Shown one piece after another: positions 17,271 to 33,996 of a DNA stretch of 51,973 nt. Made by a program: the position numbers and the translations under genes. Numbering within the stretch: position 1 is the stretch's first letter; each line of letters begins with the position of its first letter. A model generated the notes under the pieces. That model did no database searches, was not told the DNA's origin, and saw nothing but the letters and a program-made list of their open reading frames with translations. This stretch comes from a virus (lineage: Duplodnaviria; Caudoviricetes): IMG/VR virus record IMGVR_UViG_3300024256_000012, positions 1 to 51,973 of that record; one strand, written 5' to 3'.

Positions 17271-17293
17271 AGTTACTGTCTCAGGCCGACTCC
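17266..17293. repeat. 28-nt gene-junction direct repeat, copy 1
   Basis: TTCATAG(T/C)TACTGTCTCAGGCC(G/A)ACTCC; also at 17942-17969 with 2 mismatches. Confidence 0.85.
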
Positions 17294-17946: not shown

Positions 17947-17969
17947 AGCTACTGTCTCAGGCCAACTCC
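17942..17969. repeat. 28-nt gene-junction direct repeat, copy 2
   Basis: Matches 17266-17293 with 2 mismatches. Confidence 0.85.
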
Positions 17970-18247
17970 AAAAAAGAATAGAGTGGATGAGGGTGAGTTA
18001 TTCGATTGGTACAATAGACATCGCACTCACCTTCGATTGAGATAGCTCGAAGGACTTTGGCACAGGTCGCATCGCTAGGATTATCCATCAGCATCTCGTC
18101 AGAATCATGGGCATAAATTTCCAGCTCATTCTCTAGGACTCCAGCATGCTCTTTCATAAACTCGAAAGCTGCCTTGACTGAATTAAAATCTCGATCATTG
18201 ACTGTACCGATTTTGTTAGCCGATCTTAAAGTTGTTTTCATTTTCAT
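17957..18247 (-). CDS. Hypothetical early protein
   Basis: GAAGGAG RBS preceded by TAGAACCTCA. Confidence 0.7.
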   Translation of the reverse strand: MKMKTTLRSANKIGTVNDRDFNSVKAAFEFMKEHAGVLENELEIYAHDSDEMLMDNPSDATCAKVLRAISIEGECDVYCTNRITHPHPLYSFLELA

Positions 18248-18265
18248 ACTCCTTCTGTTGAGGTT

Positions 18266-19090
18266 CTAGTTGATTGGTTCTATTATTGCGACAACTGTCT
18301 TGTCGTTGTCGTAAAAAGATATTGATTTGAATTCTTTGCAGAAAGCTCTAGCTGAAACCATTCGAGCTTTCCTCACGCTCTTGGCCATATCAAAAGACAA
18401 CTCCTCTTCGTCATACTCGTATCTGATCAGATAATCATAAGCCTTGGTGAAGCTAGAGAAGCGCAATATGCGTTTCGTATCTTTGGGAGATGTTAATTGG
18501 TAGTGGCTTCTGAAAGTTTCTCTCTTGGGGTTCTTTGTATAATCTCTCACCTTGACTTCTCTATTCACCACAACCTTGCTAGCAGTCCGAATCTCGCTGT
18601 GCTTGATTAGTCTCTTTGCGGACTTTTTAACAATCGCATAAAAGACAATCTGCTTTCTCCAAGAGTAGCACTTCTCAGCAGCGACAGGTTTGCCATCGCT
18701 AACTGTATCGATGACTTTGCCTTTATGAAGGACTATAAAGTGACCAGTCACGAGAAATACGATTGTCTCATCATACAAGTCGCTACCCTTATCAGCATTC
18801 TGAATAAACCAATCGGCCAATCTCATCTTGCCACGATTGCCATAAGCCTTGCGGGCATCTCGTTTCCATTCGCAGGTGTAGTTATGATACTCTAACATAA
18901 ATTTGACGTCACCAGCATACATCGAAGTCGGGGTCAATAATCCCTTCACATTCTTCTTGCGGCAATATGCACCTTTCTCAAGGGCAATCTGATTAAGTTC
19001 TTCAACAGCGATTCCAGTCACAGAAGATACGACAGTCAGCCCGCACCAAGTTTGCTGGTTTAAGCTGACGTTGTTCATTCCAATAGCCAT
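18266..19090 (-). CDS. Hypothetical protein with possible papain-like (C39-type) Cys-His-Asp domain
   Basis: QTWCGLTVVSSVTG...FLVTGHFIVLHKGKVID pattern. Confidence 0.5.
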   Translation of the reverse strand: MAIGMNNVSLNQQTWCGLTVVSSVTGIAVEELNQIALEKGAYCRKKNVKGLLTPTSMYAGDVKFMLEYHNYTCEWKRDARKAYGNRGKMRLADWFIQNADKGSDLYDETIVFLVTGHFIVLHKGKVIDTVSDGKPVAAEKCYSWRKQIVFYAIVKKSAKRLIKHSEIRTASKVVVNREVKVRDYTKNPKRETFRSHYQLTSPKDTKRILRFSSFTKAYDYLIRYEYDEEELSFDMAKSVRKARMVSARAFCKEFKSISFYDNDKTVVAIIEPIN

Positions 19091-19092
19091 AA

Positions 19093-19647
19093 TCAGCTCA
19101 TTCCTGCTTCGAGCTTTGTTAAGTATCTTTTGCGGGCTGCTTCGTTTGCGAGTCTCGCTGCCCTAGTTTCTCTTGCGCTCATCTCGTATAGAAAAAGGCT
19201 AGTTGTTACTTTGGCTGCCTTGCTAGAATCTAAAAAGCTTCTGACCTCAAAGCATCTGCCTCCTCTGGGTGATAACCCTCCCTGCCTGCCGATGATAGCG
19301 AAGATATGCTTGTTGAGATAGCCGTTGGTGCTTTCTATCGTATCGAGACTGAGCGAAACGCTGCCGTGCTCGTTGACGCTGATTCGGACTTCTTCGAGCT
19401 TAACGATTTTGCCGCTGTAGCTATAATAGCCTTTGGCCGTTTTGACGATCTGCCCGATGACTTTCTTTTGAGCTCTCGTGATAAAGCTTTCTGGCTTGTC
19501 GCTCGTTAAAATCTCGATGGCTCTCTTGTAGGTATTAATCCTGCGAGTTGCCGCTGGGCTCGTTGAATATTTCTTCGAGAAGCTTATTTGCTCCTTGTAG
19601 AATTTTATCGAGTCTCTTTTGCGCTGGGCGTCTGTTCTAGTTTTCAT
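19093..19647 (-). CDS. Basic hypothetical early protein
   Basis: 184 aa; tandem AGAACCTTA motifs and an AAGGA RBS upstream. Confidence 0.7.
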   Translation of the reverse strand: MKTRTDAQRKRDSIKFYKEQISFSKKYSTSPAATRRINTYKRAIEILTSDKPESFITRAQKKVIGQIVKTAKGYYSYSGKIVKLEEVRISVNEHGSVSLSLDTIESTNGYLNKHIFAIIGRQGGLSPRGGRCFEVRSFLDSSKAAKVTTSLFLYEMSARETRAARLANEAARKRYLTKLEAGMS

Positions 19648-19684
19648 TTTTTCGTATTCCTTTTTTAAGGTTCTAAGGTTCTGA

Positions 19685-20206
19685 CTATTTTACTACGTTA
19701 AAATAATCTGCGTAAATATTTTCTTCTCTCGTATAGGTTAGCTGGTCTGGATGGTTCGCTGCTATCCTTCTTAAATTATCGGCTGGGTTGCGGCCTGGAA
19801 ATTTATAGTTGTAAAATCTTCTTAGGTCGGTAATGATACCGCTGGCTGCTGCTCCTAATTCGGGGTGGCGAGAATAGCTAATATGGTCGGTGATAATTTT
19901 CTTAATCGTTTCGAGTAGTTTCTGATCGTAGTAAATTGTCCTGCCTGAAAATTCGGTTATCGAATATTGGCTGGGCTGGGCTGGACGAAAATAAGAAAAA
20001 GCTTCTTCTAATTTTCTTCGGCTTTCCCTTTCCTTTTTCGCTAGCTCGTTTCTGTACGCTGGAGAAGTTTTAAAAAGTCGCTGGTGTTCGGCTTCTGCTT
20101 TTTCTTCTTCTTCTCTTCGGTAGTATCTTTTGATATTCTCTTTTTTGTCGGCTGCAATCTTTTCGTCTAATTCGGCTAATAAACTTTTTCTTTTTGCTGC
20201 GTCCAT
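19685..20206 (-). CDS. Hypothetical early protein with N-terminal charged helix
   Basis: 173 aa; TAGAACCTTAG plus an AAGGA RBS upstream. Confidence 0.7.
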   Translation of the reverse strand: MDAAKRKSLLAELDEKIAADKKENIKRYYRREEEEKAEAEHQRLFKTSPAYRNELAKKERESRRKLEEAFSYFRPAQPSQYSITEFSGRTIYYDQKLLETIKKIITDHISYSRHPELGAAASGIITDLRRFYNYKFPGRNPADNLRRIAANHPDQLTYTREENIYADYFNVVK

Positions 20207-20234
20207 GATAAATTCCTTTTCTAAGGTTCTAGGG

Positions 20235-20339
20235 TTAGTTGGCGATTATTTGAATTATCGAAGCGACTATAATGTTGGTCGCTACTGTTATTGCTAGAAA
20301 TTTCTCGAATTTCGCTAGTCTGTTTGCTAATGGATTCAT
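20235..20339 (-). CDS. Small hydrophobic peptide, 34 aa, not in ORF track
   Basis: MNPLANRLAKFEKFLAITVATNIIVASIIQIIAN*; AAAGGAG RBS and TAGAACCTTA motif; an in-frame upstream ATG exists at 20396. Confidence 0.55.
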   Translation of the reverse strand: MNPLANRLAKFEKFLAITVATNIIVASIIQIIAN

Positions 20340-20399
20340 TCTGTACTCCTTTGGTAAGGTTCTAGTGTTTTGGTCGGTATTTTTAGTTGGCTTCATTTT

Positions 20400-20420
20400 C
20401 TTATCGCCTTCGGCGATAAG
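20400..20420 (-). promoter_or_regulatory. Perfect 9-bp hairpin with GAA triloop at the head of the early gene run
   Basis: CTTATCGCC-GAA-GGCGATAAG. Confidence 0.6.
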
Positions 20421-20465
20421 ATATGGATAAATAGCAAACTTCCTATACTGAAACCCAATATTTTT

Positions 20466-20936
20466 TTACTTTTTGGCAAGTTTTATTTTTCGCTCTAAGT
20501 CCTTTATTTGCTGAAGGTTAGAAGGGAAAAGGTGGTGAGGTGGTGGAAACTTTTTTATTGAAAATTCGCTTTTTAAGGTATTAATATATATACAATCTAT
20601 GAGGCGATGTGGCACCCACGCTATGTCGTTTGTGGGTCGAATAAGGATAACAACGCAGGTGTTCCAGCTACCTTTCTGCATCGCTGTTAGCTTCGCTTTT
20701 TGTATCGGTGTTAAGTCCTTGAGGAGATTGACTGGCGTTGTATCTCGCTTTGGTAGGTCGATTGCTTTGGCTTCAATTCCCCACGGGTGGCCCTCTATTG
20801 CCCCGATGATATCAGGTCGGCCATTCGTGTAGATGTTACTATGGAATTTGAAAAACTCGCACTCAACAAAATCGTATATGAGTGGGAAGTCGTTAAAAAG
20901 TTTTACAAGCCGACTACTGAATTGCGTTTCCTTCAT
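20466..20936 (-). CDS. PD-(D/E)XK nuclease (VRR-NUC/Holliday junction resolvase-like)
   Basis: MKETQF...GRPDIIG...WGIEAK...LTPIQ. Confidence 0.85.
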   Translation of the reverse strand: MKETQFSSRLVKLFNDFPLIYDFVECEFFKFHSNIYTNGRPDIIGAIEGHPWGIEAKAIDLPKRDTTPVNLLKDLTPIQKAKLTAMQKGSWNTCVVILIRPTNDIAWVPHRLIDCIYINTLKSEFSIKKFPPPHHLFPSNLQQIKDLERKIKLAKK

Positions 20937-21204
20937 ATGGGACTCCTATCTTGGCAATGATTCCAAGTTCAATTCGATCTAGCTCAAGTACAAAATGATC
21001 AGTTGACATCTTCTCCATCGCAGCCCGCATCATGTAATGTACCGATGATACTCTGGCTTGGGACTTCTCATCCAGATCACTAATGTCTGGATTGTTAAAA
21101 TTCAGCTTTCTCATCTTCTTCGTTTCTGGCGACTCGATAATGAGGACATCATATGGTCCATCGTTCTCCAGCCGACAATTACACTTGTAATATTTTGGTG
21201 CCAT
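20914..21204 (-). CDS. Hypothetical protein
   Basis: 96 aa with an AGGAG/GAAGG RBS. Confidence 0.6.
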   Translation of the reverse strand: MAPKYYKCNCRLENDGPYDVLIIESPETKKMRKLNFNNPDISDLDEKSQARVSSVHYMMRAAMEKMSTDHFVLELDRIELGIIAKIGVPYEGNAIQ

Positions 21205-21221
21205 CCTTCTCTCCTAGAAAT

Positions 21222-21254
21222 GAAAAAGGGCACAGCCATTACAGCTATGCCCTT
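21222..21254 (-). terminator. Intrinsic terminator after the H1-like gene
   Basis: AAAGGGCATAGC...GCTGTGCCCTTTTT on the minus strand. Confidence 0.65.
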
Positions 21255-21271
21255 TGGGGGTTGGTCAAACT

Positions 21272-21697
21272 CTAGTCAGCGATGAATCTGTAAACAGAAT
21301 CGCCAGCCTTGTTCTTGGAGCGGTCAACTTTGCCAGCGTCAATTCGGTTGATAACACTGATGGTAGTTCCCACTGTAGAATCGGAGTAATTTTTCTGACC
21401 TACTTCAGCATCCAGCTTTTCCCGAATCTGAGCCAGAGTGGCTCCATTCTTGCGAGCAATCAATTGGCGGATGATATCACGAACACCCTTGTTCTGAGCG
21501 TGCATGGGTTTGCCAGTGATAGTCTTTGGACCATTAACAACTTTTTTGGCCTTGGCCTTGGCTGGAGCTTTCTTGGTTGCCTTTGCTTTCGCTGGGGCTG
21601 CCTTTTTAGCTACTACCTTTTTGGGGGCTGCGGCTTTGGTTGTAACTTTTTTTGCTGCGGCTGGTTTGCTGACTTTTTTGATAACTTTCTTTGCCAT
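21272..21697 (-). CDS. Histone H1-like K/A/P-rich protein with C-terminal winged helix (DUF3489-like)
   Basis: About 55 aa of KKAAPAKAK-type repeats, then RQLIARKNGATLAQI...STVGTTIS...GDSVYRF. Confidence 0.75.
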   Translation of the reverse strand: MAKKVIKKVSKPAAAKKVTTKAAAPKKVVAKKAAPAKAKATKKAPAKAKAKKVVNGPKTITGKPMHAQNKGVRDIIRQLIARKNGATLAQIREKLDAEVGQKNYSDSTVGTTISVINRIDAGKVDRSKNKAGDSVYRFIAD

Positions 21698-21946: not shown

Positions 21947-24900
21947 TTATTCAGCAACCTTTCCCTTCTTCAGTACCTTCAACTTGCTTATATCAATCTT
22001 GTTAAATCCAGGCACCTTCCTTCCCTGAAAGACTATCACCGACCCAACACCCGACTCTTCAAATATGAGCTTCTTGAACTTCCCAAATTTGTATCTATTA
22101 ATTCCAGCGAGTATCTGCCCTGTATCATCCTCCATCTGCATGATAAGAAACTCGTGTAAATCAGGTCGCTTGATCTTGGTCAAATCCTTCTGTGCGGTGA
22201 TACCAGCCTCAAATACATCTCGCAAATTCAGTCGGGTTATCTTCGCCAATATGATTACTTCTTCGGTGCGCTCTGTTACATCTTTGATTAGAGTCCACTT
22301 GCCCTCATATTTGTCGTACCAGTCTTGGAATCCTTCACCAATAGGATACAAGTCAGCCCACGGCAATAGGTCGGTGATAATGTCCATCCCCTTTGGGTTG
22401 CCAATCTCTTTGAACGTATCAATTATGGCTCCAGTAATCCCATCAAACAAGTCGGTCTGATTGATGTCACCCTTCGCTATTAATCCCTCAGGCAACTTAC
22501 CTAGCAAATGCAGGCTCTCTAACCCTCTTTTACCAAGAGCTTTCCTGAAGTCCTTGCTATTGCTCCATGGGCGTGTTGCGACAATTTTATCGGCTGCTTT
22601 CTCGCCAATTCCTTTCACGTTCTGAAAGCCACCATATATGATACCTTCTTTGAGGGTAAAATTCTGTTCGGACTTCTCCAAATCCAACGGCTCGAACTTC
22701 CCACCACGATCAACCCACTCTCGCAATAGCTTCTTGATAATGTCATCATCGTTCTCCTTGCGAATAGTGGAGATGTAAAACTCAGCTGGGTAGTGGGTTT
22801 TGAGATAGGCTGTCCAGTATGATAAAAGCCCATAGGAAACTGAGTGAGATTTATTGAATGCCCAAGAGCCGAATGTACAGACGTTCTCCCAAATGATTTG
22901 AGCTATCTCTTTGGTGACTCCATTCTTCCCAGCACCCTCAATGAACTTGCTTTCGTATGTCCGAAAATATTCAACACCCAAGCTCTTGCTCATAATTTTT
23001 CTCAGAGCAGTAGCATCCTCCCAGTTCATCCCACCTAGCTCTTTTACAATCGTGAGAACTTGCTCTTGATAGACTACAATTCCATAAGTCTCTCCAGCTA
23101 GAGTTTCGAGCATCGGGTGAATATATTGAACCTTCTTTTTTGTCGGTATGTCAAAGCCCATCTCGTGAGCTCTGTAATTGATATAACGAGTCGTGCCACC
23201 ACAGTGTAGTGACCCAGGTCGTGCCAGTGCGCTTATCTCTGCTATGTTAGTAAATTTGTCAGGCTGTACTTGTTTGTTGACCATCCTAACAGCGTCACCT
23301 TCAAATTGGAAAATTCCCCAGAGCTTATTTGTGCGAAAGGTCTCAAATGTTTTCGTATCTTCCAGAGGCAAATTATACAGCCAATCATAATCCTTCTCGA
23401 TCAGCAAAAGGATATTCTCTAGAATGGTAAGTTGCTTCAGTCCAAGCAGGTCAATCTTCAGCAAGCCGACTGCTTCAGAATCCTTCTTGTCCATACTGAT
23501 GATTCGTTCTCCTTTCGTGCCCCTAACAAGCCCACCTAGCTTGTCTATGGGCTGATCTGATACTACGAGCCCAGCGGCATGAATCCCGTGCTGTTTGATC
23601 TGTCCTTCGATCTTGGCTGCTTCCTTGAATAAAGGATATTGTTTCACAATCGCTTTGCTTCTCTCGAACTGGTCAAAGGTATCAGTCAAACAAAAGCTGG
23701 CACGAGCATCAGCTGAACTCCTTTCGACTATCAAATTGACAAGCTCTTGAGCTTCCCTGAATGGTAGGTCGTATGCCCTTCTTGTATCCCACAAAGCTAC
23801 CTTCGGTTTGAAGTATCCAATCGTGCCTAGCTGGCTTGTATACTCCTCCCCATATTTGTCAATCAAATACTCGATAACCATATGACGCTTTTCATCTGGG
23901 AAGTCTAGATCAATATCAGGTGGATCATTTCGAGTGATGTCAATAAATCTCTCGAAAATTAAGCCGTGAGGAATTGGATCAACTTCAGTTATCCTGAGGA
24001 CATAAGCGACTATGGAACCAGCTACACTTCCACGAGCTGGCCCAAGCAACATCCTCTTCTTAGCCCACACGCAAAGGTCTTGGATGACTAGGAAGTAGTC
24101 AATGTAATTTTTCTCGTTGATGAGCTTGACTTCCTTCGCAAGTCGTTTCTCGTACACTGGCCAGTCCTTGAGCTTTTTTAACCCTCTGAACTTTACTCCA
24201 GTGGTGATCTGATACAGGAAAAATTCCTCTTTGTTTTTCCATAGAGCATTCTTCTCCAGTGGGAAAGTTTTCTGCCCTGATATAACTCGCTTATCTGAAC
24301 ACTTGTCGTCAATCTCAAGGGTGTTCTCGAAAGGAGAGTGATCAGGGTAAACAAGGGCAGACCTTTCCTCAGCTTCAGCTCCATCGAAGAGATACAATTC
24401 AGGCATCAGTTTTAATCGGTTGGGGTCATCGAAGTTTGACTTGGTTCCTATGCATACAATCAAGTCCTCTGCTGTATGATCGTGGGGGCTGGGGAAGTGC
24501 GAGTCAGAAGTTGAGACTGGCTTGATATTATATTCATCTGCAAGCTCAAGTATCTGAGTCACCTCCCCAGCAAACTTTTCGATTGGGCTGACTTCTATAT
24601 AAAAGTCATCTTTGAATGCCTTCTTAAAACTCTTCAGATATTTGTCCCTGTATTGAGTTTTGCTAAGGTTATTAATTAAGACTCCAGCACCCATACATCC
24701 CGACAAAACGATCAACCCTTCGTTATGAGCCAGCAGAGTTTTGAAGTCGATTCTTGGCTTGTAATAGAATCCCTCAAAATTGCTAAAGGTTATCAGCTTG
24801 TGTAGGTTCTCTTGCCCAGTCTCATTCTTAGCCATAACTGTTATATGATAACGATGCCTGTCATGCCTATCCATAGCATCATCGACAATATAAAACTCAC

Positions 24901-25102
24901 AGCCGTAAATTATCTTGGTGCCGTTGTTTCGCTTCTTCGCTTCTCGCCAGAATGGAACATGAGCCCAGATATTGCCATGGTCAGTTATAGCTAGCGACTT
25001 GTGCCCAATCTCCTCTAGCCTATCAAGGTATTGAGCTGGCAATCCATACCCATCTAGGAAACTGTACCCAGTATGAGTATGGAGGTGTATGAAATCTAAC
25101 AT
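21947..25102 (-). CDS. dnaE: DNA polymerase III alpha subunit (family C)
   Basis: PHP motifs HLHTHTGYSFLDG, AITDHG and SDSHF; GPARGSVAGS, FERF, catalytic PDIDLD, HAAG, KIDLLGL, YQEQ and FNKSH; C-terminal OB-like MEDDTG. Confidence 0.97.
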   Translation of the reverse strand: MLDFIHLHTHTGYSFLDGYGLPAQYLDRLEEIGHKSLAITDHGNIWAHVPFWREAKKRNNGTKIIYGCEFYIVDDAMDRHDRHRYHITVMAKNETGQENLHKLITFSNFEGFYYKPRIDFKTLLAHNEGLIVLSGCMGAGVLINNLSKTQYRDKYLKSFKKAFKDDFYIEVSPIEKFAGEVTQILELADEYNIKPVSTSDSHFPSPHDHTAEDLIVCIGTKSNFDDPNRLKLMPELYLFDGAEAEERSALVYPDHSPFENTLEIDDKCSDKRVISGQKTFPLEKNALWKNKEEFFLYQITTGVKFRGLKKLKDWPVYEKRLAKEVKLINEKNYIDYFLVIQDLCVWAKKRMLLGPARGSVAGSIVAYVLRITEVDPIPHGLIFERFIDITRNDPPDIDLDFPDEKRHMVIEYLIDKYGEEYTSQLGTIGYFKPKVALWDTRRAYDLPFREAQELVNLIVERSSADARASFCLTDTFDQFERSKAIVKQYPLFKEAAKIEGQIKQHGIHAAGLVVSDQPIDKLGGLVRGTKGERIISMDKKDSEAVGLLKIDLLGLKQLTILENILLLIEKDYDWLYNLPLEDTKTFETFRTNKLWGIFQFEGDAVRMVNKQVQPDKFTNIAEISALARPGSLHCGGTTRYINYRAHEMGFDIPTKKKVQYIHPMLETLAGETYGIVVYQEQVLTIVKELGGMNWEDATALRKIMSKSLGVEYFRTYESKFIEGAGKNGVTKEIAQIIWENVCTFGSWAFNKSHSVSYGLLSYWTAYLKTHYPAEFYISTIRKENDDDIIKKLLREWVDRGGKFEPLDLEKSEQNFTLKEGIIYGGFQNVKGIGEKAADKIVATRPWSNSKDFRKALGKRGLESLHLLGKLPEGLIAKGDINQTDLFDGITGAIIDTFKEIGNPKGMDIITDLLPWADLYPIGEGFQDWYDKYEGKWTLIKDVTERTEEVIILAKITRLNLRDVFEAGITAQKDLTKIKRPDLHEFLIMQMEDDTGQILAGINRYKFGKFKKLIFEESGVGSVIVFQGRKVPGFNKIDISKLKVLKKGKVAE

Positions 25103-25647
25103 ATGGGGTTGTTCCTTTTTACCAGCTGAATTAAAACTGCGAGATTGCGCTCAGCGACTCCGATAATGATGCTGATGTTTACCTTTAAGCCCCCAGTGTC
25201 ATGCTTCTTGTAATAATCATTCTCAAGTAGATTCTTAAAAGTGGTTTCAGTAAATGTATGTTTGTGGTCTAAATCTTGGTGCGCCATATTCGATTTGTAG
25301 TATGGAACTGTTATGTTAATAACTCCATCAGATTTTAAAACTCTAGACATATCAGCGATAAGTGGAATCACATTTTGGATATGCTCTAGGAAATGGTGGC
25401 AATTGATAACGTCTACAGAGTTGGCCTTGAAAGGAATAGGATTTGATTCAGCATCCCATGATGGCCAATCTAACACCCTGTTATTTTCTAAGACCTTCAT
25501 CATGCCAGCTCCCAGATTTAAGATAACAGCGTCATCACCGACATCCCACTCAGGCTTATAATAAACAGAATTGATATCACGATCCATCCCGACTTTGAAA
25601 AACTCTCGAAGAGTTTTGGGGAAAGCCCCAAAATATTTCTTTGTCAT
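25096..25647 (-). CDS. Class I SAM-dependent methyltransferase-like protein (Methyltransf_11 type)
   Basis: Motif I VILNLGAG; IPFKANSVDVINCHHFLEHI; RVLKSDGVINITVP. No DPPY or PC DNA-methyltransferase motif. Confidence 0.8.
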   Translation of the reverse strand: MTKKYFGAFPKTLREFFKVGMDRDINSVYYKPEWDVGDDAVILNLGAGMMKVLENNRVLDWPSWDAESNPIPFKANSVDVINCHHFLEHIQNVIPLIADMSRVLKSDGVINITVPYYKSNMAHQDLDHKHTFTETTFKNLLENDYYKKHDTGGLKVNISIIIGVAERNLAVLIQLVKRNNPIC

Positions 25648-26462
25648 TTCTTATCTCCATCGGTGCTAAAGTGTTCAGACTTAAAGACTCGATCACCAGC
25701 CCACTCGAACTCGCATTGCTCTTCTGTCTCCTCAAATCCTTGGAACATACACTTGTGAGTTTTCTCGCAACTGATCTTTATGTACGGCTCCATCCAAGGC
25801 CATAGAATTAAAACTTCACTTGCCATTCGCTGCATTACTTCGACCATCTCCCACTGGAACATCGGGCAAGCTCGATAAGCGAAAGTGTCCAAGAAAACTT
25901 TGATTGGATATTCAGCCACAATATAAGTCTCTATGCCAACAGGAACAGCAAACCTTGCGTCTTGGTATGGGATGCCCAGTTCGCACAGCTTCTCGTATGT
26001 TTTACGAGCTTGAAACACAAGGTTATTAAAAATCTGATGAGCATCCCTATCGTTCCAGATTGTTTTAGGTTCTCGAACATTAAACTTGGCACCCATAAAA
26101 GTGTAGCGAGAAGATTGCTGGTGGAAGGCTGCTTTGCGAGTCCTTACCATCTGGTGAGTAAAAGCCCGACTGACTCCGCTTATCTCGAAGGTGAACACGC
26201 CAGCTTCCAATCCTGTCTGGAGTCCTCCTTTGAATAACTCTTCGCCAACCTCTGGTGGAATGTCTTCATTAATATCTCCACCCACAGTAGCTCCAACCAT
26301 CTTTGATAAAGCTCTTTTGAATCTCTTCTCATCTGGGTAGTCGATAAGCTTGACTTGGATACCATCGGTGCCAGCGTGAACTTCTCCTTTGTTTAAAGGA
26401 CTGATCGCATTCATGCCGTGCTCGTGAGAATTGAACGCAGTTTTCTTATTCTTGTTAAGCAT
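25644..26462 (-). CDS. thyX: Flavin-dependent thymidylate synthase homolog (ThyX family, divergent motif)
   Basis: FTFEISGVSRAFTHQMVRTR...QQSSRY, GIPYQDARFAVP and FQWEM. The canonical RHR reads RTR. Confidence 0.85.
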   Translation of the reverse strand: MLNKNKKTAFNSHEHGMNAISPLNKGEVHAGTDGIQVKLIDYPDEKRFKRALSKMVGATVGGDINEDIPPEVGEELFKGGLQTGLEAGVFTFEISGVSRAFTHQMVRTRKAAFHQQSSRYTFMGAKFNVREPKTIWNDRDAHQIFNNLVFQARKTYEKLCELGIPYQDARFAVPVGIETYIVAEYPIKVFLDTFAYRACPMFQWEMVEVMQRMASEVLILWPWMEPYIKISCEKTHKCMFQGFEETEEQCEFEWAGDRVFKSEHFSTDGDKK

Positions 26463-26805
26463 CTTGGCTTTCCTTTTCCATCTTCTCGATATTGAGAATT
26501 GTTAGTATTGAATAGTTTGCTAGGTCGATCAAGTTTTGTTTTACGTTCTCCAAATCCCTTTCTCTGGACTTGGGAGTTTTGCCTAGCATGAAATGATTAA
26601 GCTGGCGCACGTGACCTGATTTGAATAATCCTTTAACACGCAACCACTTCCTTTTGATATCATAATAGCTTCCAACCAGATCATCTTCCAAAAAGGAATT
26701 ACCATACTGGACATTCTTAACTGTAAAGACTCGAAGCATCTGCTGAGTTATCTCTTCAAATCTATTTTGTATTTCAATTTGGCTCATTCTATTCTCCATT
26801 GTCAT
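26455..26805 (-). CDS. DUF1599 / nucleotide-modification-associated domain 1 (all-alpha NTP-PPase-like)
   Basis: KNVQYGNSF...DIKRKWLR...LIDLANYSIL signature. Confidence 0.75.
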   Translation of the reverse strand: MTMENRMSQIEIQNRFEEITQQMLRVFTVKNVQYGNSFLEDDLVGSYYDIKRKWLRVKGLFKSGHVRQLNHFMLGKTPKSRERDLENVKQNLIDLANYSILTILNIEKMEKESQDA

Positions 26806-27719
26806 CTTATTTCATCCAGAGTTTTAATTCTGATTACATTCTTGCCCATATCACCTTGGTTGTAATCAGTGTCGATCAGATAACACTTTTTGCCAGCTTT
26901 GCTAATGTCATTAGCATAGTGTAGCATATCTTCAACCATAAACTCGATATTGGGGAACTGGCTTATGGCATCTTGATTTTTCTTCTCGCTGAAGATGATA
27001 GCGTCACGGCCATCCTCCCACAGATCATTTTCCCTCAACCAAAATAAAGTATCTGAAAAAATTCGGCTGTATTCTTTTACTGGCCTTGAGGTCAAATACA
27101 CTATCGAATATCCTGCGCTGTGCATGCTTTTGATAAAACTCCACGCACCTGAGCATAGCTCCATTGTACGCTTCTTGCCAGTCTCTCGATACTCGTGTTT
27201 GAGTTTCCTGATTGCTTTCCTTCCTAAGACTTTTTCATATGCTCTGAAGATGTCGTCTGTAAATGTTATCGGCTCCACCTGAGTCTCTTCGTGAATAAAC
27301 TTCATAAAGGAGTAAGGATAGTCAGCCAGCACCCCATCCAGATCACAAGCAATAATCTTTTCCCTATCTCGAAGCTTGAGAAGTTTTTCCTGAACCCAGC
27401 GTTGTTCCACCACAGCACTTTTATCAGCAAAAGCTTCCATAAACTCATCTGGTGCCCAGCCCCAGACCTGCCCTATGACGAGCCAGTATTTGAATATGTC
27501 AATCCACTCTTCTCGAATATTAGAAATGGTGAGCTGCTCCTTACTAGGCCGATGCGCTTTGTAGTTGATTTCTCGAAGCAACTCACCCAATTCTGCCATC
27601 AATTGTAAAACATATTCCTTAGTATATTTCTGTTTGGAATCTGTGTCATAAATCTCATCTGATATATTTGTCTGGAAGTCGGCTTGCCTATCCCAGATTT
27701 GCTGTAGTCTATCGCTCAT
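26802..27719 (-). CDS. Fusion of an all-alpha dimeric dUTPase/dCTPase-like NTP-PPase and a HAD 5'(3')-nucleotidase-like domain
   Basis: N-terminal ELGELLRE...YKAHR...EEWIDIFKY; C-terminal HAD motifs IACDLDGVLAD, YLTSRP, K and MVED. Confidence 0.85.
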   Translation of the reverse strand: MSDRLQQIWDRQADFQTNISDEIYDTDSKQKYTKEYVLQLMAELGELLREINYKAHRPSKEQLTISNIREEWIDIFKYWLVIGQVWGWAPDEFMEAFADKSAVVEQRWVQEKLLKLRDREKIIACDLDGVLADYPYSFMKFIHEETQVEPITFTDDIFRAYEKVLGRKAIRKLKHEYRETGKKRTMELCSGAWSFIKSMHSAGYSIVYLTSRPVKEYSRIFSDTLFWLRENDLWEDGRDAIIFSEKKNQDAISQFPNIEFMVEDMLHYANDISKAGKKCYLIDTDYNQGDMGKNVIRIKTLDEIR

Positions 27720-28651
27720 AGTTTTAATCCTTTCAATCTGCTCATTTCTTGCCAGCTCTGATCGAGTTTGTAACCCTTCTCCCAGTTAGCATATCGACCT
27801 ACCATATACATGCCGCTGTCTCTTAATAACTGTTTGGTGTTATCTAGATCAAGAAGAGTTTTATCAACTGGAAAAACTTTTCCTGGTGTTAGTTTTATTC
27901 CTTGGCTACCAAAGGCAGCAGGATTCATATATTCTCTCGTCATTAGACTACCAGCCAAAGTTGTCCTGTAATGCCCGACTTCTTTGTCATAGTTATAGAT
28001 AATGATCATATTGTTTTTACCAAGAGGAGAATCCAGCAAGCTCTGTCTTATGTAGATCGGCTTTGACCTGAAAGCTTCATATGGCATATTCCTTATCACC
28101 TCAGGAACTATAATTGGCCCACCATAGTCGGCTCGTGTTATAAGTTTTAAGAAGCTGGGCAGAGGCAGTGTGTTAATAATAGTTTTGGCATATATAGTCC
28201 CTTTGTCTGTATCAACTCGCTTGGCGTTGCTGCCCATATTCTGAATATAGATTTTGGTCACTCTTCTATCATAGTCGAAATGCCCAGCTGAAGCTAGCAT
28301 ATGATCAATGTTAAGTTTATAGCCAAATGCCATCTTCTCGTCAATCGAAACTCCAGCGACTTGCTCCCCATAAACCTTCTCTGAATACTGCTCTGTAAAA
28401 TCTTCATCCTGCCGTGGGCCATCGATCATCCACGCCACACTGATAGTCTCGTCAGTCACCAAAGGGTGGAGATGTCGGTGGACATAGAAGGCAGCCGTTG
28501 AGCTATACATTTTGCGGGTGGTACTAAACGAATTTGCCTCCACGTGCCCTATCCTATCGGCTGGAATTTTCATCACGTGTTTTAAGTAGGAGTGAGCCAA
28601 TAATCCCGATGGCCCAGCCCCAATAATTAAGTAATCACAAGTCAATTGCAT
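27716..28651 (-). CDS. FAD-dependent oxidoreductase-like protein
   Basis: Dinucleotide-binding YLIIGAGPSGLLA, IINTLPLP and C-terminal YMVGRYANW, as in UDP-galactopyranose mutase/amine-oxidase-like flavoproteins. Confidence 0.8.
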   Translation of the reverse strand: MQLTCDYLIIGAGPSGLLAHSYLKHVMKIPADRIGHVEANSFSTTRKMYSSTAAFYVHRHLHPLVTDETISVAWMIDGPRQDEDFTEQYSEKVYGEQVAGVSIDEKMAFGYKLNIDHMLASAGHFDYDRRVTKIYIQNMGSNAKRVDTDKGTIYAKTIINTLPLPSFLKLITRADYGGPIIVPEVIRNMPYEAFRSKPIYIRQSLLDSPLGKNNMIIIYNYDKEVGHYRTTLAGSLMTREYMNPAAFGSQGIKLTPGKVFPVDKTLLDLDNTKQLLRDSGMYMVGRYANWEKGYKLDQSWQEMSRLKGLKL

Positions 28652-28671
28652 TTCCTTTTTCCTTTTTCTTT

Positions 28672-31602
28672 TTAGTCAAACATTTCTTGTTCAGTTTCGG
28701 GGTCAACTTGGAAAGCCGAATCATCCACGACAATCTGGCCATTTTTTCTCATATTGAGATACGTTATGAATGCCTCAGTTTTAACATAGAAGGAAGTACC
28801 AACTGTCTTCAAGGCATTATTGTTTCTTAAAACTCGCAGCACATTCTTAACAGCAGACCTTTCCCAGCCTGTTATGTCCACGAGCGAAGATAGATTCAAA
28901 CGATCATCCTCAAGGAGAAGAGGCACGAAGTCATTCTTGATAACCGCATCCACCGCAGATCGGTCTTTCAGTTTTGTTTTACTTAGCTCAACCTCAGACC
29001 ACTCTCCATATCTCATAGAGCTTTTGTTGTAAATCTTTTCCAGCCAGTTATAGAAGAAGTCAACGTGGCCAGTTTTAACAAGGAGGGTTTTGCCGTGGGT
29101 GTTGGTGCTGAAAAACATACCAGCTACAGCAGAAGCACCTCTCATTAGTTTTAATCTTTGATCAGAAGGTTCAACAATTGGTATGCCGTGATAATACTTA
29201 TCACCCATCTGCCTAGCATATTGTAAAACTTTCTTAATTGCTCCAGCCGTAAATTTCACCTCATCAGTTTTACGAGACCAGACCCACATAACAAGATCGT
29301 GACATAAGGCCTGAGTATATTTGAGCACCCTTTCCTCTTTTACTTTCACCCTGTTATAGACTTCTTTGTTCACCTCTTCGCTATGGGCTGTCAGGACAAA
29401 ATCGAATCGCCTGATGTCCTCTAGATTGCCGATCAAATCCCTGACCGCAATACAGCCATAAGGATATTGCATCATGTTCCTACTCGTGTGGCCAATCTTG
29501 CGTGGGTTACCAATCCAAACCTTTCGAGTTTGCGCCATAGTTTTCTCAGTCCTAATCTTAGTCAACTCAGCTATCCCTGATGACCTTACTCCAGAGAACA
29601 AAGCTATGTCTTCAACGCTCATTCCTGATATCTCGTCAATGATTAAAGCTCTGCGGTTATTAAGTGGGATTTTGCCCCAGTTGATATGCCATCGCTTCGC
29701 TGTCTGGCTTAGTCCTCCGATGAGCCCAGCAATGCTAGAGCTTTCACCAGTTACAAATTCTGCAACCCCATAGTGTTTAATCATCGCTTTGGCTAGCTCA
29801 GTTTTGCCACAGCCAGAATCTCCAATGATTAAACTCTCCATCCAACCACGCTCAACCTTCCCTTGAAACTTAACATTCAACGGACTGTGGAGAGTTATAT
29901 CAAATGTCATAGCGATGTCCATCCGATCATAGATGCCACTTATATGTTCGATGTCCTCATGCCTTTCGAGATAAGCCTTCATCATTTCTTCAGCACTACC
30001 ATCGCACTGGAAAATTTCCAAACGCTTTTCCATCTCCTCATTCATATCGAATTGGTCGATTGAATCAACAGTTTCTATGGCATCGAAAAAGAGCTGGGTG
30101 CTCTGCTGTGTTTTCGGGTTAGGAAGGGCAAGCCCTCTTAAAACATAGACTTGGTTGGCCTGTACTCCTAGCCCAGCGTGATACGCTACATTCTGAACAT
30201 ATTCATAATTCGCATCGGTGGTGAAGTCTATCTCTGGGATGAGTCTTAACTCTTCTATGTTTATATATGTTTTTGTATCTATCCTAAATCTGTCGCACCT
30301 ATTCGGGATGCCCAGCTGCTTCTTGATATTCCTAAACAAAGCATCATCTCGAATGTCGATAAGATTTAACAAACTGCCTCTGTCAACCTCCTCCTTCAAA
30401 AATATATCTTTATTGTTATCAGTCACCTGATAGAAGGGACAAAATGGGCATAGGTTCTCGCCACCCTTGGCATCGCATTTACAATTAACTTTATTTGGAA
30501 TTTCATAGGGTGGATAATCCTTGCCTGATACTAGAGCTTTGACTTCAATATTCATCAACGCATTCTTCGCATGGCTGGCGTCAGCAAGAGTGACCTTTTT
30601 ATATTCCTTGTTTCTCTCCTTCTTCCCATACTCCATTGTATCATAATATTCTTTGGCTGCTGTTAAAACTTCTCTGAAGTCCTCTATTGTTTTACCATAT
30701 GTTATTATAAAGTCTGTGAAGTCATCTCCTCCTTTCGGCTCTTCAATAAACTTCCCCAGCTCTGCTATGAATACAATCTCAGCTATCCCTACCAATTGCT
30801 TGGCGACTCGAATTGCTCCAGCTTCTCCAGCCTTATCTACATCATACAATATATAGACTTTTTTGTCCTTGAAATATTTATGAGGCCAGCCCTTGTTAAA
30901 ACTTCCAGCCCCACTCGTAACAGTCACGGCCTTCAGCCCCATCTGGTCGGCCAACATCGCATCCATCTCTCCTTCGACAATCAATATTTTCTTCGACTCT
31001 AGATTGTGAAGAGGAAACAAGCGCATGCGCCCATATTGGTATTCTGAATCATCGGTGTAATTGATTAATTTGAACTTGGGATTCTTCATCAGGAAAGCAT
31101 ATTGGCGTACATTCCTGCACTTGCCTTCGCTGTCGAATATTGGTATGGTGATTCTGTTCCTAAAATATCCAAGCTTGTGCTTCTTGATAGTCGCTAGAGT
31201 GATGCCACGCATCTCCTCCAGCTTGGATATTATCATCTTGTTATCGAGCAAAGCCTTGTGCCAACTTTCCCATATAGAATTGTCAACTGTTCCCTCAAGA
31301 GAATAGTCATCAGCATTAAGCTTTATATCAAGATGTTTACAGAGCCATTGAATGCGTTCTCGTTTCGTTTCCAGCCCCAGCTTTTTCTCAAGGAATGTAT
31401 AGACGTTTCCAGACCCGCATCCCGCATAACAATTGTATTGCCCTGTTTGAGAATTAAAACCAAAACTGGGGTCAGTATCTTCGTGTAAAGGACAATGTCC
31501 AGAAAACTGTCCATCTCCCAACGGCTTAATCTTTTCTACAAAATCTTCATAGAATCTCAGGTAGTCAATCTTCAATTCTATCTGTTCAATAATACTAGGC
31601 AT
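28672..31602 (-). CDS. Primase-helicase: CHC2 zinc finger, TOPRIM (DnaG-type) and MCM-like AAA+ helicase
   Basis: CPLHEDTDPSF..CYAGC; IVEGEMD and YDVDKAG; Cys cluster CKC...CPFC; GDSGCGKT, SSIAGLIGG, IIDE, IGNP and RRFD. Confidence 0.9.
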   Translation of the reverse strand: MPSIIEQIELKIDYLRFYEDFVEKIKPLGDGQFSGHCPLHEDTDPSFGFNSQTGQYNCYAGCGSGNVYTFLEKKLGLETKRERIQWLCKHLDIKLNADDYSLEGTVDNSIWESWHKALLDNKMIISKLEEMRGITLATIKKHKLGYFRNRITIPIFDSEGKCRNVRQYAFLMKNPKFKLINYTDDSEYQYGRMRLFPLHNLESKKILIVEGEMDAMLADQMGLKAVTVTSGAGSFNKGWPHKYFKDKKVYILYDVDKAGEAGAIRVAKQLVGIAEIVFIAELGKFIEEPKGGDDFTDFIITYGKTIEDFREVLTAAKEYYDTMEYGKKERNKEYKKVTLADASHAKNALMNIEVKALVSGKDYPPYEIPNKVNCKCDAKGGENLCPFCPFYQVTDNNKDIFLKEEVDRGSLLNLIDIRDDALFRNIKKQLGIPNRCDRFRIDTKTYINIEELRLIPEIDFTTDANYEYVQNVAYHAGLGVQANQVYVLRGLALPNPKTQQSTQLFFDAIETVDSIDQFDMNEEMEKRLEIFQCDGSAEEMMKAYLERHEDIEHISGIYDRMDIAMTFDITLHSPLNVKFQGKVERGWMESLIIGDSGCGKTELAKAMIKHYGVAEFVTGESSSIAGLIGGLSQTAKRWHINWGKIPLNNRRALIIDEISGMSVEDIALFSGVRSSGIAELTKIRTEKTMAQTRKVWIGNPRKIGHTSRNMMQYPYGCIAVRDLIGNLEDIRRFDFVLTAHSEEVNKEVYNRVKVKEERVLKYTQALCHDLVMWVWSRKTDEVKFTAGAIKKVLQYARQMGDKYYHGIPIVEPSDQRLKLMRGASAVAGMFFSTNTHGKTLLVKTGHVDFFYNWLEKIYNKSSMRYGEWSEVELSKTKLKDRSAVDAVIKNDFVPLLLEDDRLNLSSLVDITGWERSAVKNVLRVLRNNNALKTVGTSFYVKTEAFITYLNMRKNGQIVVDDSAFQVDPETEQEMFD

Positions 31603-32028: not shown

Positions 32029-32979
32029 CTATTCAAATGGGCCTTCTTGATCATCGGCTGGCCCAAAGTTCTCATCACGGCCTTCATCGAAGTTGGTTTG
32101 CCATTTGGCACTCGCCAGCATCTTGTAAAGTCCCATGACCTTCTCTCGAATGTCATCTTCAATCGAGCCACTAGGCTGAACCTTAAACACGTGGAAAGTT
32201 CCTTTGTCATTCTTCTCCTTCTGGGTAGTAAGTTCATAAATGTTCTCGAACAAATTACCACTCCCAAAAGTAGCCATAGACGTGAGCTGCTTTCCTGCCT
32301 TGTAACCAGTTTTAAGAAAGCTGATAGCAACCATCTCGTTTCCTTCGGCTCCATCAGGCAATTCATAATACTCTCCATCATCTCCAATAACACCGATAAT
32401 AAGCGATGGGAAAGTCAGGATTGCTGAGCATTCTGGTGGGGTTGATTCTTCACCCCATTGCGAGTATTGACAACGAGCGCAACTGCCGTGATACTTCGCA
32501 CCCTGATCAGGTTGCTTGAAGTTCGAGCTAGCGCATCTCACTCCAGTCTCTCCAGAGTCTCTTTCAGGCCAGAAAATTCTGCGCTTGTTTAGGACCAGAG
32601 GAATGAAGAGAACTCCTTGCCCATAATCGAATTTGGTAACACTGTTAACAATCTCTCCAGCAATAGCAATTCCCTCATCGACTTCTGGTGATAAGGGCTG
32701 CATCAGTTTCGCATATGGAATGATAAGGTCATCTTGATCAACCTCTTCAAGTCCAAGCTTCCCTCCGCCACCTAGAGGCATCTGGGCAACTGCGGCTGGG
32801 CTAGTAGGTGCCAAAGCTGTTTCATTAGCTTCTTGGGGCTGTTCCGCAACTTCTTCGGCTATAACTTCCACAACCTCTTCTTCGACTGGAGCTGGTGGGG
32901 TTGCCTTCGGCTTTGCGACCTTTTTGATTGCTGTTTTCTTTTGAGCGACTTTCTTTGCCATGTTTTGTTCCTTTCTCAA
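32029..32979 (-). CDS. Putative ssDNA-binding/annealing protein (start probably Met 32961)
   Basis: DDLIIPYAKLMQPLSPEV motif, Cys cluster CARCQYSQW...C, YELTTQKEKNDKGTFHVF and an acidic tail ending PFE; located in the replication block. Confidence 0.65.
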   Translation of the reverse strand: MRKEQNMAKKVAQKKTAIKKVAKPKATPPAPVEEEVVEVIAEEVAEQPQEANETALAPTSPAAVAQMPLGGGGKLGLEEVDQDDLIIPYAKLMQPLSPEVDEGIAIAGEIVNSVTKFDYGQGVLFIPLVLNKRRIFWPERDSGETGVRCASSNFKQPDQGAKYHGSCARCQYSQWGEESTPPECSAILTFPSLIIGVIGDDGEYYELPDGAEGNEMVAISFLKTGYKAGKQLTSMATFGSGNLFENIYELTTQKEKNDKGTFHVFKVQPSGSIEDDIREKVMGLYKMLASAKWQTNFDEGRDENFGPADDQEGPFE

Positions 32980-33001: not shown

Positions 33002-33484
33002 TTAAGATCGCAGCTTTGCGAGTCTTTCAGATTTGTATTTTGAGTCTATCCTTTGAGCAAGATCAGTGTATGGATTCATCGACATTCCTGCGGGCAACTT
33101 CCCTGTCCTGAGGAAAAATTCCTTCACGGCAGGAGTACCAAAACGATGCTGGAGAAATTCTGGGGAGTCGCTTTTGAATACGAAGTCAAAAAACTTATCC
33201 CAGTCATCAACCTTCCACCCTTCCTTCTCAGTCATTGTTAAGCTACCAAAATCAGTACCAACTTTTTGAAGCTCGTTATTCTCCATAAGAGTTTTAATTT
33301 TGGCTATCAAAGCACCTTGCTTGGCGTTGATCTTTTTCTTTTGCTCTTCGAGAAGTTCTATGTCAACTCGATTGTTGAAAAACTCCTCTGCCAATTTACC
33401 AATAGTGGCAACGGCTGTTTCTTCGGCTTTTGTTAACTCTTCAGTCATGCTCTGTTCTCCTTTTTCATTTAACATTTCCTTCAC
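33002..33484 (-). CDS. Coiled-coil replication/recombination accessory protein (Gp157/Gam-like)
   Basis: Long N-terminal helix, then VGTDFGSLT...KVDDWDKFFDFV...FLQHR. Confidence 0.55.
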   Translation of the reverse strand: MKEMLNEKGEQSMTEELTKAEETAVATIGKLAEEFFNNRVDIELLEEQKKKINAKQGALIAKIKTLMENNELQKVGTDFGSLTMTEKEGWKVDDWDKFFDFVFKSDSPEFLQHRFGTPAVKEFFLRTGKLPAGMSMNPYTDLAQRIDSKYKSERLAKLRS

Positions 33485-33773
33485 GATATTTGCTTTGGTG
33501 ATAATCCCATATCAGCAAATTAACGCAACCAAGCTTCTTCATAATTATCGCTGTACAATAACTCGCTATGACGCTATTGCCCGCAATCAAAAGATAGTCG
33601 GTTGGCTTCATATTCTCCACGGCCATCTCGATGTCTCGCTTCAAGCCATCATCCCTGAAGATATTTGTTTTGCCTTCGGTGATATAAACAATCTCTCCAT
33701 CACCCTCCAAAAACCTAACAGAATCAGATAACTCAACTCTGTTAAAGTTTGTTACAAAGATGCTCCTATTCAT
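33465..33773 (-). CDS. Small alpha/beta hypothetical protein
   Basis: IFVTN...IVYITEG...DYLLIAGN...VNLLIWD...Y pattern. Confidence 0.7.
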   Translation of the reverse strand: MNRSIFVTNFNRVELSDSVRFLEGDGEIVYITEGKTNIFRDDGLKRDIEMAVENMKPTDYLLIAGNSVIASYCTAIIMKKLGCVNLLIWDYHQSKYREGNVK

Positions 33774-33996
33774 TTGCCTTCACCTCATATAACTCTATGG
33801 CATCTTTAATAACTGTTAAAACTTTCGGGTCAGAAAATATAATGCGCAGAACTTGCTTCAATAATCTGCCTTTGGTTTTATCAATAACATTCATAAAGAG
33901 CTTTGAGCCATTCTTTTCATAAGTGGTAACAAGCTCCACCTTGTACCATTTATTTTGGGCTGATATAACTCTAGCTGGCCTCACCTTACTTGACAT
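33766..33996 (-). CDS. Hypothetical protein
   Basis: 76 aa; GAGGAG RBS; overlaps neighbours. Confidence 0.6.
   Translation of the reverse strand: MSSKVRPARVISAQNKWYKVELVTTYEKNGSKLFMNVIDKTKGRLLKQVLRIIFSDPKVLTVIKDAIELYEVKANE

Follow-up and report, generated by a model that had tools for sequence, protein, structure and literature searches.

Thymidine hypermodifications built on 5-hydroxymethyldeoxyuridine (5-hmdU) have been described in phages M6, PaMx11, ViI, SP10 and PhiW-14, and the available text of Lee et al. assigns to these pathways a ThyA-family dUMP hydroxymethylase, a P-loop 5-hmdU DNA kinase and aGPT-Pplase/AADT transferases (PMC8989533). A further case comes from Pbunavirus, whose DNA was taken to be unmodified before a 2025 preprint by Yee et al. 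reported hypermodified thymidines in the virion DNA of phages F8 (362 u) and 14-1 (390 u) (PMC12191111). According to the available part of that preprint about a quarter of thymidines is replaced, in a TG context, and the 362 u species is read as a tetrose sugar-alcohol derivative and the 390 u species as a cyclised pentose derivative; the same text names no biosynthetic genes, and the words "ThyX", "flavin" and "thymidylate" occur zero times each in it (PMC12191111). Here we describe a cassette of five genes (positions 25096-28651, minus strand) in the 51,973-bp IMG/VR virus record IMGVR_UViG_3300024256_000012, the whole of which we call the window. The cassette encodes a flavoprotein, a fusion of an NTP pyrophosphohydrolase (PPase) with a HAD-type nucleotidase, a DUF1599-like protein, a divergent member of the ThyX family and an S-adenosylmethionine (SAM) methyltransferase, and it runs into the gene for a DnaE-type polymerase. 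It represents, in compact form, a phage module of wide distribution, in which a Cys-rich ThyX lacking His53 and a phage-only flavoprotein with the fold of UDP-galactopyranose mutase (UGM) stand together with a HAD protein beside DnaE. We propose tentatively, and at a little short of an even chance, that the cassette supplies phage DNA with a thymidine precursor substituted at C5, of the 5-hydroxymethyl-dU type or a derivative of it, either by making it or by channelling it.

Results

The gene at 25644..26462 (minus strand) encodes a 272-residue protein that belongs to the ThyX family by both sequence and fold. It scores 102.7 bits against Pfam Thy1 (PF02511; cut-off 24.8, E 2.9e-29) and matches phrog_35637 (8.1e-68), and its fold matches M. 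tuberculosis ThyX (2af6_A, Z 17.1), PolB (4p5a_A, Z 16.6) and T. maritima ThyX (5chp_A, Z 16.1), with the next unrelated chain at Z 5.3. Against the TIGR02170 thyX equivalog it reaches 82.4 bits, under the cut-off of 87.9, which bears out the description of this protein as a divergent ThyX in an initial annotation of the window.

In order to place this divergence we mapped the residues of the protein onto T. maritima ThyX and then aligned it with its relatives, with 80 viral-contig loci as the clade set. The window protein carries Leu81 at the position of T. maritima His53 and Ala87 at that of His59, and RHRx7S, the "ThyX motif", is RTRx7S through replacement of RHR by RTR. Across the clade the His53 equivalent is Leu in all 79 aligned members and the His79 equivalent is Ser or Thr in 80 of 80. 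We take the three lost histidines to be at positions tied to the binding of FAD, NADPH and folate in canonical ThyX. Equivalents of the dUMP contacts Q75, R78, R80, S88, R90, R147 and R174 are all present in the window protein, and all of these except Q75 were found to be kept in 80 of 80 clade members. Four Cys residues (C199, C232, C238 and C250 in the window) are invariant throughout the clade (40 of 40 and 80 of 80 members in two alignments). A C-terminal extension of ~40 residues, absent from T. maritima ThyX, holds three of the four, which together may form a Zn or Fe-S site. The state of His53 follows the presence of the flavoprotein gene, being Leu or Ile in 17 of 17 flavoprotein-associated ThyX proteins and His or Tyr in the three of three without it (STSV1, BCE1 and SRB7757). 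The four Cys were also considered as a marker of flavoprotein-associated ThyX and were rejected as such, as the ThyX proteins of STSV1 and SRB7757 carry them without a flavoprotein.

The same residues suit a second account, in which the cassette serves ordinary thymidylate supply and housekeeping of the dNTP pool for a fast DnaE replicase, ThyX being a "two-component" enzyme with a helper flavoprotein and the virion DNA being canonical. We regard this account as a substantial possibility, though not a probable one. The helper would be a flavin reductase, an electron donor or a one-carbon (C1)/folate supplier that compensates for the lost equivalents of His53, His59 and His79, and the loss of just those residues that bind FAD, NADPH and folate in canonical ThyX fits such a helper. 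The Thy1 domain, the ThyX fold and the dUMP-binding arginines are all conserved. The window holds no other thymidylate synthase, so the gain to the phage would be obvious: a six-frame search of the window found no member of the ThyA family (PF00303), and a control search matched 10 of 14 control genomes.

The helper would have to be the protein encoded first in the cassette, at 27716..28651 (minus strand; 311 residues), which is a phage-specific protein of the FAD type. Its own sequence matches no Pfam family at E<=0.01, no NCBIfam family and no PDB chain at E<=1, and an exhaustive HMMER scan of 1.84e9 representative proteins returned 34 representatives at E<=1e-3. The best fold match of its AF2 model (pLDDT 89.9, with 29 relatives aligned) is the UGM chain 4dsg_A (Z 21.1, root-mean-square deviation 3.4, 291 of 311 residues aligned, 16% identity). 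The next fold families, CpaO, protoporphyrinogen oxidase and MAO, follow ~4 Z units lower at Z 17.0, and further UGM chains match at Z 16.4 (3hdq_A) and Z 15.3 (4mo2_A); the top matches in Foldseek are likewise amine oxidases and UGM. In the Atlas the nearest clusters are 95-100% viral "hypothetical proteins". The earlier label of an FAD oxidoreductase is thus sustained by an N-terminal GxGxxG motif, by matches of the relatives to NAD_binding_8 (11 of 29) and DAO (7 of 29) and by the fold, and draws nothing from Pfam, NCBIfam or PDB matches of the protein's own sequence. This fold, with a single dinucleotide-binding domain, speaks against a helper that acts as flavin reductase: there is no flavin reductase among the fold matches listed, and we know of none with the UGM/amine-oxidase fold. 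Modelling the ThyX-like protein and the flavoprotein as a complex twice returned no answer (score 0.00, no controls run), and we count it neither for nor against binding.

Linkage of the two genes was followed by three routes, starting from the flavoprotein, from similarity to ThyX and the methyltransferase in cultured phages, and from the ThyX clade in IMG/VR. By the last route, 46 of the 80 loci have at least 9 kb on both sides (full-flank loci), and within 10 kb of ThyX these contain HAD in 44 cases, DnaE in 42 and the flavoprotein in 41; in the 34 loci with shorter flanks the flavoprotein was seen in 17. In 58 of the 58 loci that have it the flavoprotein gene lies upstream of ThyX on the same strand, at a median distance of 6.8 kb (range 2.2-9.8 kb). 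Starting from the flavoprotein instead, we obtained eight IMG/VR loci, all with ThyX (six by tblastn; L006 and L007 by Pfam Thy1 and profile) and most with HAD and DnaE.

Among cultured phages, no match to the cassette was found at the nucleotide level in 50,697 phage records, and none to the window flavoprotein by single-sequence tblastn, and the family was reached only by profiles or from a more central member. The flavoprotein profile finds it in 9 of 12 cultured-virus records (SN, Wentworth, WTB, Onyinye, Xenia2, Spe5P4, Gekk3-15, F8 and 14-1) and not in the other three (STSV1, Bacillus phage BCE1 and SRB7757), and a local profile search located it in Gumball as gp63. With the Pbunavirus flavoprotein as query, tblastn identified 362 phage records; by host genus, the totals for ThyX and flavoprotein (genus totals, not record-by-record pairings) are 292/292 for Pseudomonas, 27/27 for Escherichia and 6/6 for Xanthomonas. 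Carriers include Pbunavirus, Myosmarvirus, actinophage clusters D, DV and BK, and Escherichia phage vB_EcoM_WFC, WFC and WFH being the phages after which their genus was described. The core is conserved from marine viruses to mycobacteriophages. The lack of conserved linkage of the oxidoreductase and methyltransferase with ThyX, set beforehand as a refuting condition, was not what we found: the flavoprotein accompanies ThyX in nearly all loci examined, and the methyltransferase is confined to phage groups with the module, being a rare accessory there (6 of the 46 full-flank loci).

Such neighbourhoods could also persist by descent, the genes sharing no pathway and the accessory proteins acting on other targets, such as a protein, RNA or a host metabolite, while a host sugar nucleotide would be the target of the flavoprotein, in takeover or anti-defence. 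In keeping with this, the methyltransferase gene moves (its place in Pbunavirus SN is the early region, ~40 kb away from ThyX) and is missing at its window position from the closest relative of the window, and the distance between flavoprotein and ThyX varies among relatives over the range given above. DnaE, an SNF2 helicase (F8 gp053) and a Pam3_Gp34-like protein (F8 gp051) are common to the window and F8, so the synteny may be inherited; the F8 homologues of the latter two indicate that the replication module as a whole is common to the window and Pbunavirus. We nevertheless consider descent improbable as the full explanation, as the flavoprotein and ThyX occur together across myo-, sipho- and podovirus backgrounds and in phages of hosts from Actinomycetota to Pseudomonadota, their genes are directly adjacent in L011-L013, Spe5P4 and Gekk3-15, the His53 state of ThyX tracks the presence of the flavoprotein in 20 of 20 cases, and the five window genes are translationally coupled by overlaps.

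The two Pbunavirus phages with measured thymidine modifications are among the carriers. F8 and 14-1 encode the ThyX-like protein (gp059/ORF59), the flavoprotein (gp065/ORF65; profile matches 1.7e-11 and 5.8e-12) and the HAD protein (gp057/ORF57), and F8 also carries a MazG-like protein, gp049. The annotations of the F8 record include no glycosyltransferase, and their sole kinase-type label is "polynucleotide kinase/phosphorylase" for gp057; ThyA-type and aGPT-Pplase proteins have no annotation in F8 or 14-1. The reported masses can be reached from 5-hmdU by simple arithmetic (258 + 122 - 18 = 362 and 258 + 150 - 18 = 390), which fits an ether or glycosidic C5-CH2-O linkage and therefore C1 transfer at C5. 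That proven T-hypermodified phages carry the core, and that the available text of the preprint names no other candidate for a C5-C1 transferase, argues against plain dTMP supply (PMC12191111). We infer, going beyond that preprint, that the core may be the maker of the F8 and 14-1 modifications. In its strongest form, this idea has the His53-less ThyX and the UGM-fold flavoprotein as the biosynthetic core so far missing for the Pbunavirus thymidines with sugar or polyol decoration, and as the first flavin-dependent (ThyX-type, rather than ThyA-type) entry into DNA hypermodification; in that form we regard it as rather doubtful. Were it true, the same chemistry would be expected in hundreds of cultured phages (Pbunavirus, Wifcevirus, Myosmarvirus and clusters D, DV and BK) as well as in marine viruses, and the variable HAD, SDR (short-chain dehydrogenase) and methyltransferase genes would set the side chain.

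The second gene of the cassette (26802..27719, minus strand; 305 residues) encodes the PPase-HAD fusion, in which residues ~1-115 are an all-alpha NTP pyrophosphohydrolase of the MazG/dUTPase_2 type and residues ~120-305 an NT5C-like HAD 5'-nucleotidase. Residues 5-99 match dUTPase_2 marginally (23.6 bits, cut-off 22.9) and phrog_173 (3.1e-06), and the ExxE and EExxD acidic positions, presumably the metal-binding motif of all-alpha NTP pyrophosphohydrolases, are invariant in four of four fusion homologues. Residues 121-247 score 21.8 bits against NT5C, under the cut-off of 24.8, and the HAD half matches phrog_2643, "5'-3' deoxyribonucleotidase" (1.6e-06), and phrog_420 (3.3e-17); HAD motif I, DxDx(T/V), is present as DLDGVLADY (DxDxV), of which we take DLDGV to resemble the NT5C signature. 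The fusion proposed initially is thus supported narrowly above the Pfam cut-off in its PPase half and falls below it in its NT5C half. Homologues of the fusion follow the flavoprotein gene with 49% identity in L006 and L007, 37% in L009 and 34% in L010. In an account of dTMP supply the PPase would remove dUTP or aberrant dNTPs and the HAD domain would balance monophosphate pools, and MazG-like and nucleotidase genes are indeed annotated near ThyX and polymerase genes in other phages, a MazG gene adjoining ThyX in Bacillus phage BCE1, without a flavoprotein. However, a fused drain from triphosphate to nucleoside would be wasteful and counter-productive beside a plain dTMP synthase, unless the substrate of the drain is not the product of the synthase. 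Exclusion of a canonical base by draining its nucleotide is the classic logic of the hmU and uracil Bacillus phages.

The third gene (26455..26805, minus strand; 116 residues) encodes a DUF1599 (Nmad1)-like protein. Its match to DUF1599 (PF07659) is 22.8 bits with residues 86-105 aligned, below the cut-off of 25, and the homologue in locus L004 reaches 24.5 bits; it matches phrog_1485 (5.4e-10), and its Atlas structure has a TM score of 0.79 to a DUF1599 cluster, which we treat as a lead only. The DUF1599/Nmad1 label is accordingly backed by the PHROG match and the Atlas neighbours and not by Pfam at its cut-off. The further claim that the cassette holds two NTP-PPase-like domains found no support: comparison of the DUF1599-like protein with the PPase domain by hhalign, from shallow alignments of four sequences each, gave a probability of 0.55%.

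The last gene before dnaE (25096..25647, minus strand; 183 residues) encodes a class I SAM methyltransferase, as had been annotated; it matches Methyltransf_11 (6.6e-09; 36.7 bits, cut-off 21.2) and phrog_6636 (9.5e-42). Motifs of DNA methyltransferases (DPPY/NPPY-type and PC) are absent from its translation, and it is predicted to be of the small-molecule type. NCBIfam gave only weak hints (MftM 3.4e-4, far under the cut-off), on which we did not rely. The protein matches 131 phage records, from Pseudomonas, Gordonia, Mycobacterium, Burkholderia and Salmonella phages, all of them groups that carry the module. Among the full-flank loci an SDR is present in 14 and DUF1599 in 12. In L004, positions 255-965 encode a 236-residue SDR (adh_short 2e-30) between the HAD and DUF1599 genes. 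The SDR gained and the methyltransferase absent in that locus indicate that accessory genes turn over fast within the cassette. The methyltransferase, PPase, DUF1599-like protein and SDR are accessories, and the flavoprotein, ThyX-like protein, HAD and DnaE form the core. The recurrent SDR and methyltransferase have no role in dTMP supply, and count against that account.

The window looks complete (CheckV 100%), and nearly all its long open reading frames (ORFs) are on the minus strand. The five overlapping genes running into dnaE were recovered at exactly the positions first given for them. Overlaps of 4, 4, 8 and 4 nt join neighbouring cassette genes, and one of 7 nt joins the methyltransferase gene to dnaE; none of the five is a chance ORF, because each has homologues or family matches. 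Downstream the cassette is bounded by the DnaE-type replicative polymerase (21947..25102, minus strand; 1051 residues), with PHP, DNA_pol3_alpha (2.6e-68), finger and HHH_6 domains. Its upstream boundary is a primase-helicase (28672..31602, minus strand; 976 residues) with Zn_ribbon_DnaG (1.9e-10), Toprim_2 and Toprim_4 matches and an MCM-type P-loop (3.9e-07), the gene for which ends 20 nt before the flavoprotein gene. Homologues of the primase-helicase sit directly before the flavoprotein gene in L006, L007 and L008; in L006 and L007 (positions 6470-9991) the homologue is split into two ORFs of 515 and 433 residues, ~670 nt apart. Upstream of the primase-helicase, 32029-32979, 33465-33773 and 33986-35773 encode Pam3_Gp34-like and Pam3_gp32-like proteins and an SNF2-family helicase.

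The window has no identified tRNA gene, and the six-frame search found neither dCMP deaminase nor trimeric dUTPase. Kinase, transferase and glycosyltransferase families are absent from the 37 Pfam-scanned and 15 PHROG-scanned window proteins, a scan that left out some small ORFs and included no dedicated model. The stretch 10711-21697 contains ~20 small to medium minus-strand ORFs, and of 10 compared with both Pfam and PHROGs, 8 match no family in either, including 18266-19090 (274 residues) and 17281-17946 (221 residues). Such enzymes for DNA-level modification as the phage may encode would have to lie here.

The phage is marine and recurrent. Among public metagenome runs of 2018-2020 from seawater or marine sources, 24 hold the stretch 21947-31602 at contig level; 18 of these contain at least half of the sampled words, 14 may be source samples, and the studies behind them may belong to one campaign.

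Discussion

From the gene identities, folds, residue patterns and linkage described above we infer a series of enzymatic steps, and with them a possible modified base in this phage. The ThyX-like enzyme would bind dUMP and add the C5 methylene carbon. The flavoprotein would then take over or redirect the redox or transfer half-reaction, a role suggested because the folate/NADPH-stacking and FAD-contacting residues of ThyX are replaced, and the exocyclic methylene intermediate would be captured by water or by the hydroxyl of a sugar or polyol, or handed on, rather than simply reduced. Meanwhile the NTP-PPase/NT5C fusion would drain the competing canonical pyrimidine nucleotide from triphosphate to monophosphate to nucleoside, accessory enzymes (the SAM methyltransferase in the window, the SDR in relatives) would tailor or supply the side chain, and the phage DnaE would incorporate the product.

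Several lines of evidence point toward a modified precursor. The first is the constant linkage of the flavoprotein taken together with the His53 pattern and the modified thymidine of F8 and 14-1. The second is the presence of sugar-type enzymology near the core, in the UGM-like fold of the flavoprotein (Z 21.1), the SDR (14 of 46 loci, and L004) and the HAD phosphatase; the UGM fold is used for covalent flavin-sugar chemistry. The third is the PPase-NT5C drain, and the fourth the absence of a ThyA-family gene, dCMP deaminase and trimeric dUTPase from the six-frame search of the window.

Other observations weigh against it. With all dUMP contacts intact, the ThyX-like protein may well still convert dUMP to dTMP. 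Two of the supposed pathway genes are rare accessories, the methyltransferase and the PPase being present in 6 and 5 of the 46 full-flank loci, and locus L004, the closest relative of the window (ThyX 88% and DnaE 92% identical), has no methyltransferase between ThyX and DnaE. The ThyX-clade loci are evolutionary kin sharing a replication module, and their co-occurrence counts are not independent events. Nor is the cassette unique to the window: it is already annotated, with no joint role, in cultured actinophages, and the gene set is noted in annotations and genome announcements that, in their available text, assign it no role (PMC11385102, PMC10893344). The literature searched, supplements lying outside the search, yielded nothing on DNA modification in actinophages of clusters D or DV.

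In the F8 and 14-1 regions compared (L036 and L037, 44000-56000), the flavoproteins are 97% and the ThyX proteins 94% identical despite the different side chains reported for the two phages. The divergent genes are gp070 (57%), gp066, whose N-terminal 176 residues have no match, and the HAD gene gp057 (80%). A near-identical core beside divergence in gp070, the gp066 N-terminus and gp057 indicates that the side-chain determinants are probably outside the core; gp066 and gp070, which have no convincing Pfam family (gp070 has a sub-threshold ATG14 match), may set side-chain identity, and other unassigned Pbunavirus genes could be the source of the modification. Because T is replaced only in part, and at a TG motif, steps at the DNA level are implied; enzymes for these are not recognisable in our window scans. 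The available text of the preprint leaves ~3/4 of Pbunavirus T ordinary, which suits ordinary dTMP supply (PMC12191111).

Restriction-site counts in the window are a further point on the same side. Observed and expected numbers of palindromes are 0 and 29 for CCGG, 1 and 43 for CGCG, and 0 and 17 for CTCGAG; TG-containing palindromes are also depleted (TGCA 75 and 186, ratio 0.40; CATG 119 and 209, ratio 0.57), as are GATC (160 and 273, ratio 0.59), AGATCT (0 and 9) and CTTAAG (0 and 10). Avoidance this strong indicates that the window DNA is not broadly protected, and it fits the unprotected DNA expected from plain dTMP supply. F8, in contrast, shows little avoidance of 4-mer palindromes. Its 6-mer palindromes are depleted where they lack TG/CA (0.73) and not where they contain it (0.96), which fits its reported TG-context modification. 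The modified-pyrimidine pathway first proposed for the cassette is thus supported in part, being strengthened by the linkage and by core carriers with hypermodified thymidine, and weakened by the rarity of the methyltransferase and PPase and by site avoidance.

Neither a joint function for the flavoprotein and ThyX nor a metal site in ThyX was found in a paper within the same literature search, which likewise turned up no mention of a UGM-fold flavoprotein paired with a His53-less ThyX or of the coincidence of this pair with Pbunavirus modification. The compact, coupled layout in the window points to a specific, testable gene set. If the link to modification holds, it would give a ThyX-based route to base hypermodification, modified genomes that can be predicted from sequence and a role for a phage-only flavoprotein family, and it would bear on sequencing, cloning, restriction, sensitivity to type IV defence and phage-therapy host range. 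If it fails, the pair would still represent flavin-dependent thymidylate synthesis in a two-protein form not described before.

Comparison with known systems

The known 5-hmdU pathways resemble our proposal in concept, in that C5 of dUMP receives a C1 unit from methylene-tetrahydrofolate ahead of replication, with elaboration afterwards, and the available text describes an FAD enzyme in one branch, PaMx11 gp47 (PMC8989533). They differ in that the window has no ThyA-family gene in the six-frame search and no kinase or transferase family among the scanned proteins, some small ORFs being unscanned. Judged by its genes, the window is not a member of a known 5-hmdU hypermodification system.

Canonical ThyX (T. 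maritima, M. tuberculosis and H. pylori structures) shares with the window protein the fold (Z 14.5-17.1), the Thy1 domain and the dUMP-contacting Gln, Arg and Ser residues. The window protein departs from it in having RTR for RHR, Leu for His53, Ala for His59, the Cys-bearing extension and a constant separate flavoprotein. UGM is the best structural match of that flavoprotein, and in one GenBank record the Pbunavirus homologue bears the UGM label. The flavoprotein is shorter, however (311 residues, against 365-510 in UGMs), has no sequence-level Pfam or PDB match and is encoded in a context of nucleotide metabolism rather than the glycan synthesis of UGM, the likeness being one of fold.

In the actinophages the gene families around DnaE and their orientation are the same as in the window, and the actinophage methyltransferase is 37-38% identical to that of the window. 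These phages differ in their Gram-positive hosts and 64-71 kb genomes, in having the PPase and HAD as separate genes and an SDR present, and in a ThyX with large insertions (366-386 residues, against 272 in the window).

In Pbunavirus the module (F8 gp049 and gp055-gp065; 14-1 ORF55-ORF65) is spread over ~13 kb, the fusion partner of the HAD is an unassigned C-terminal domain and not a PPase, and the methyltransferase lies elsewhere and in only some members (58 Pseudomonas records match it, against 292 for the flavoprotein). Modified nucleosides have been measured there, whereas the window phage is known from its genes. The two otherwise share the same flavoprotein family, a His53-less, Cys-bearing ThyX-like gene, a HAD protein, a MazG-like PPase and DnaE, and Pbunavirus, like the window, has no annotated ThyA-type hydroxymethylase, glycosyltransferase or aGPT-Pplase.

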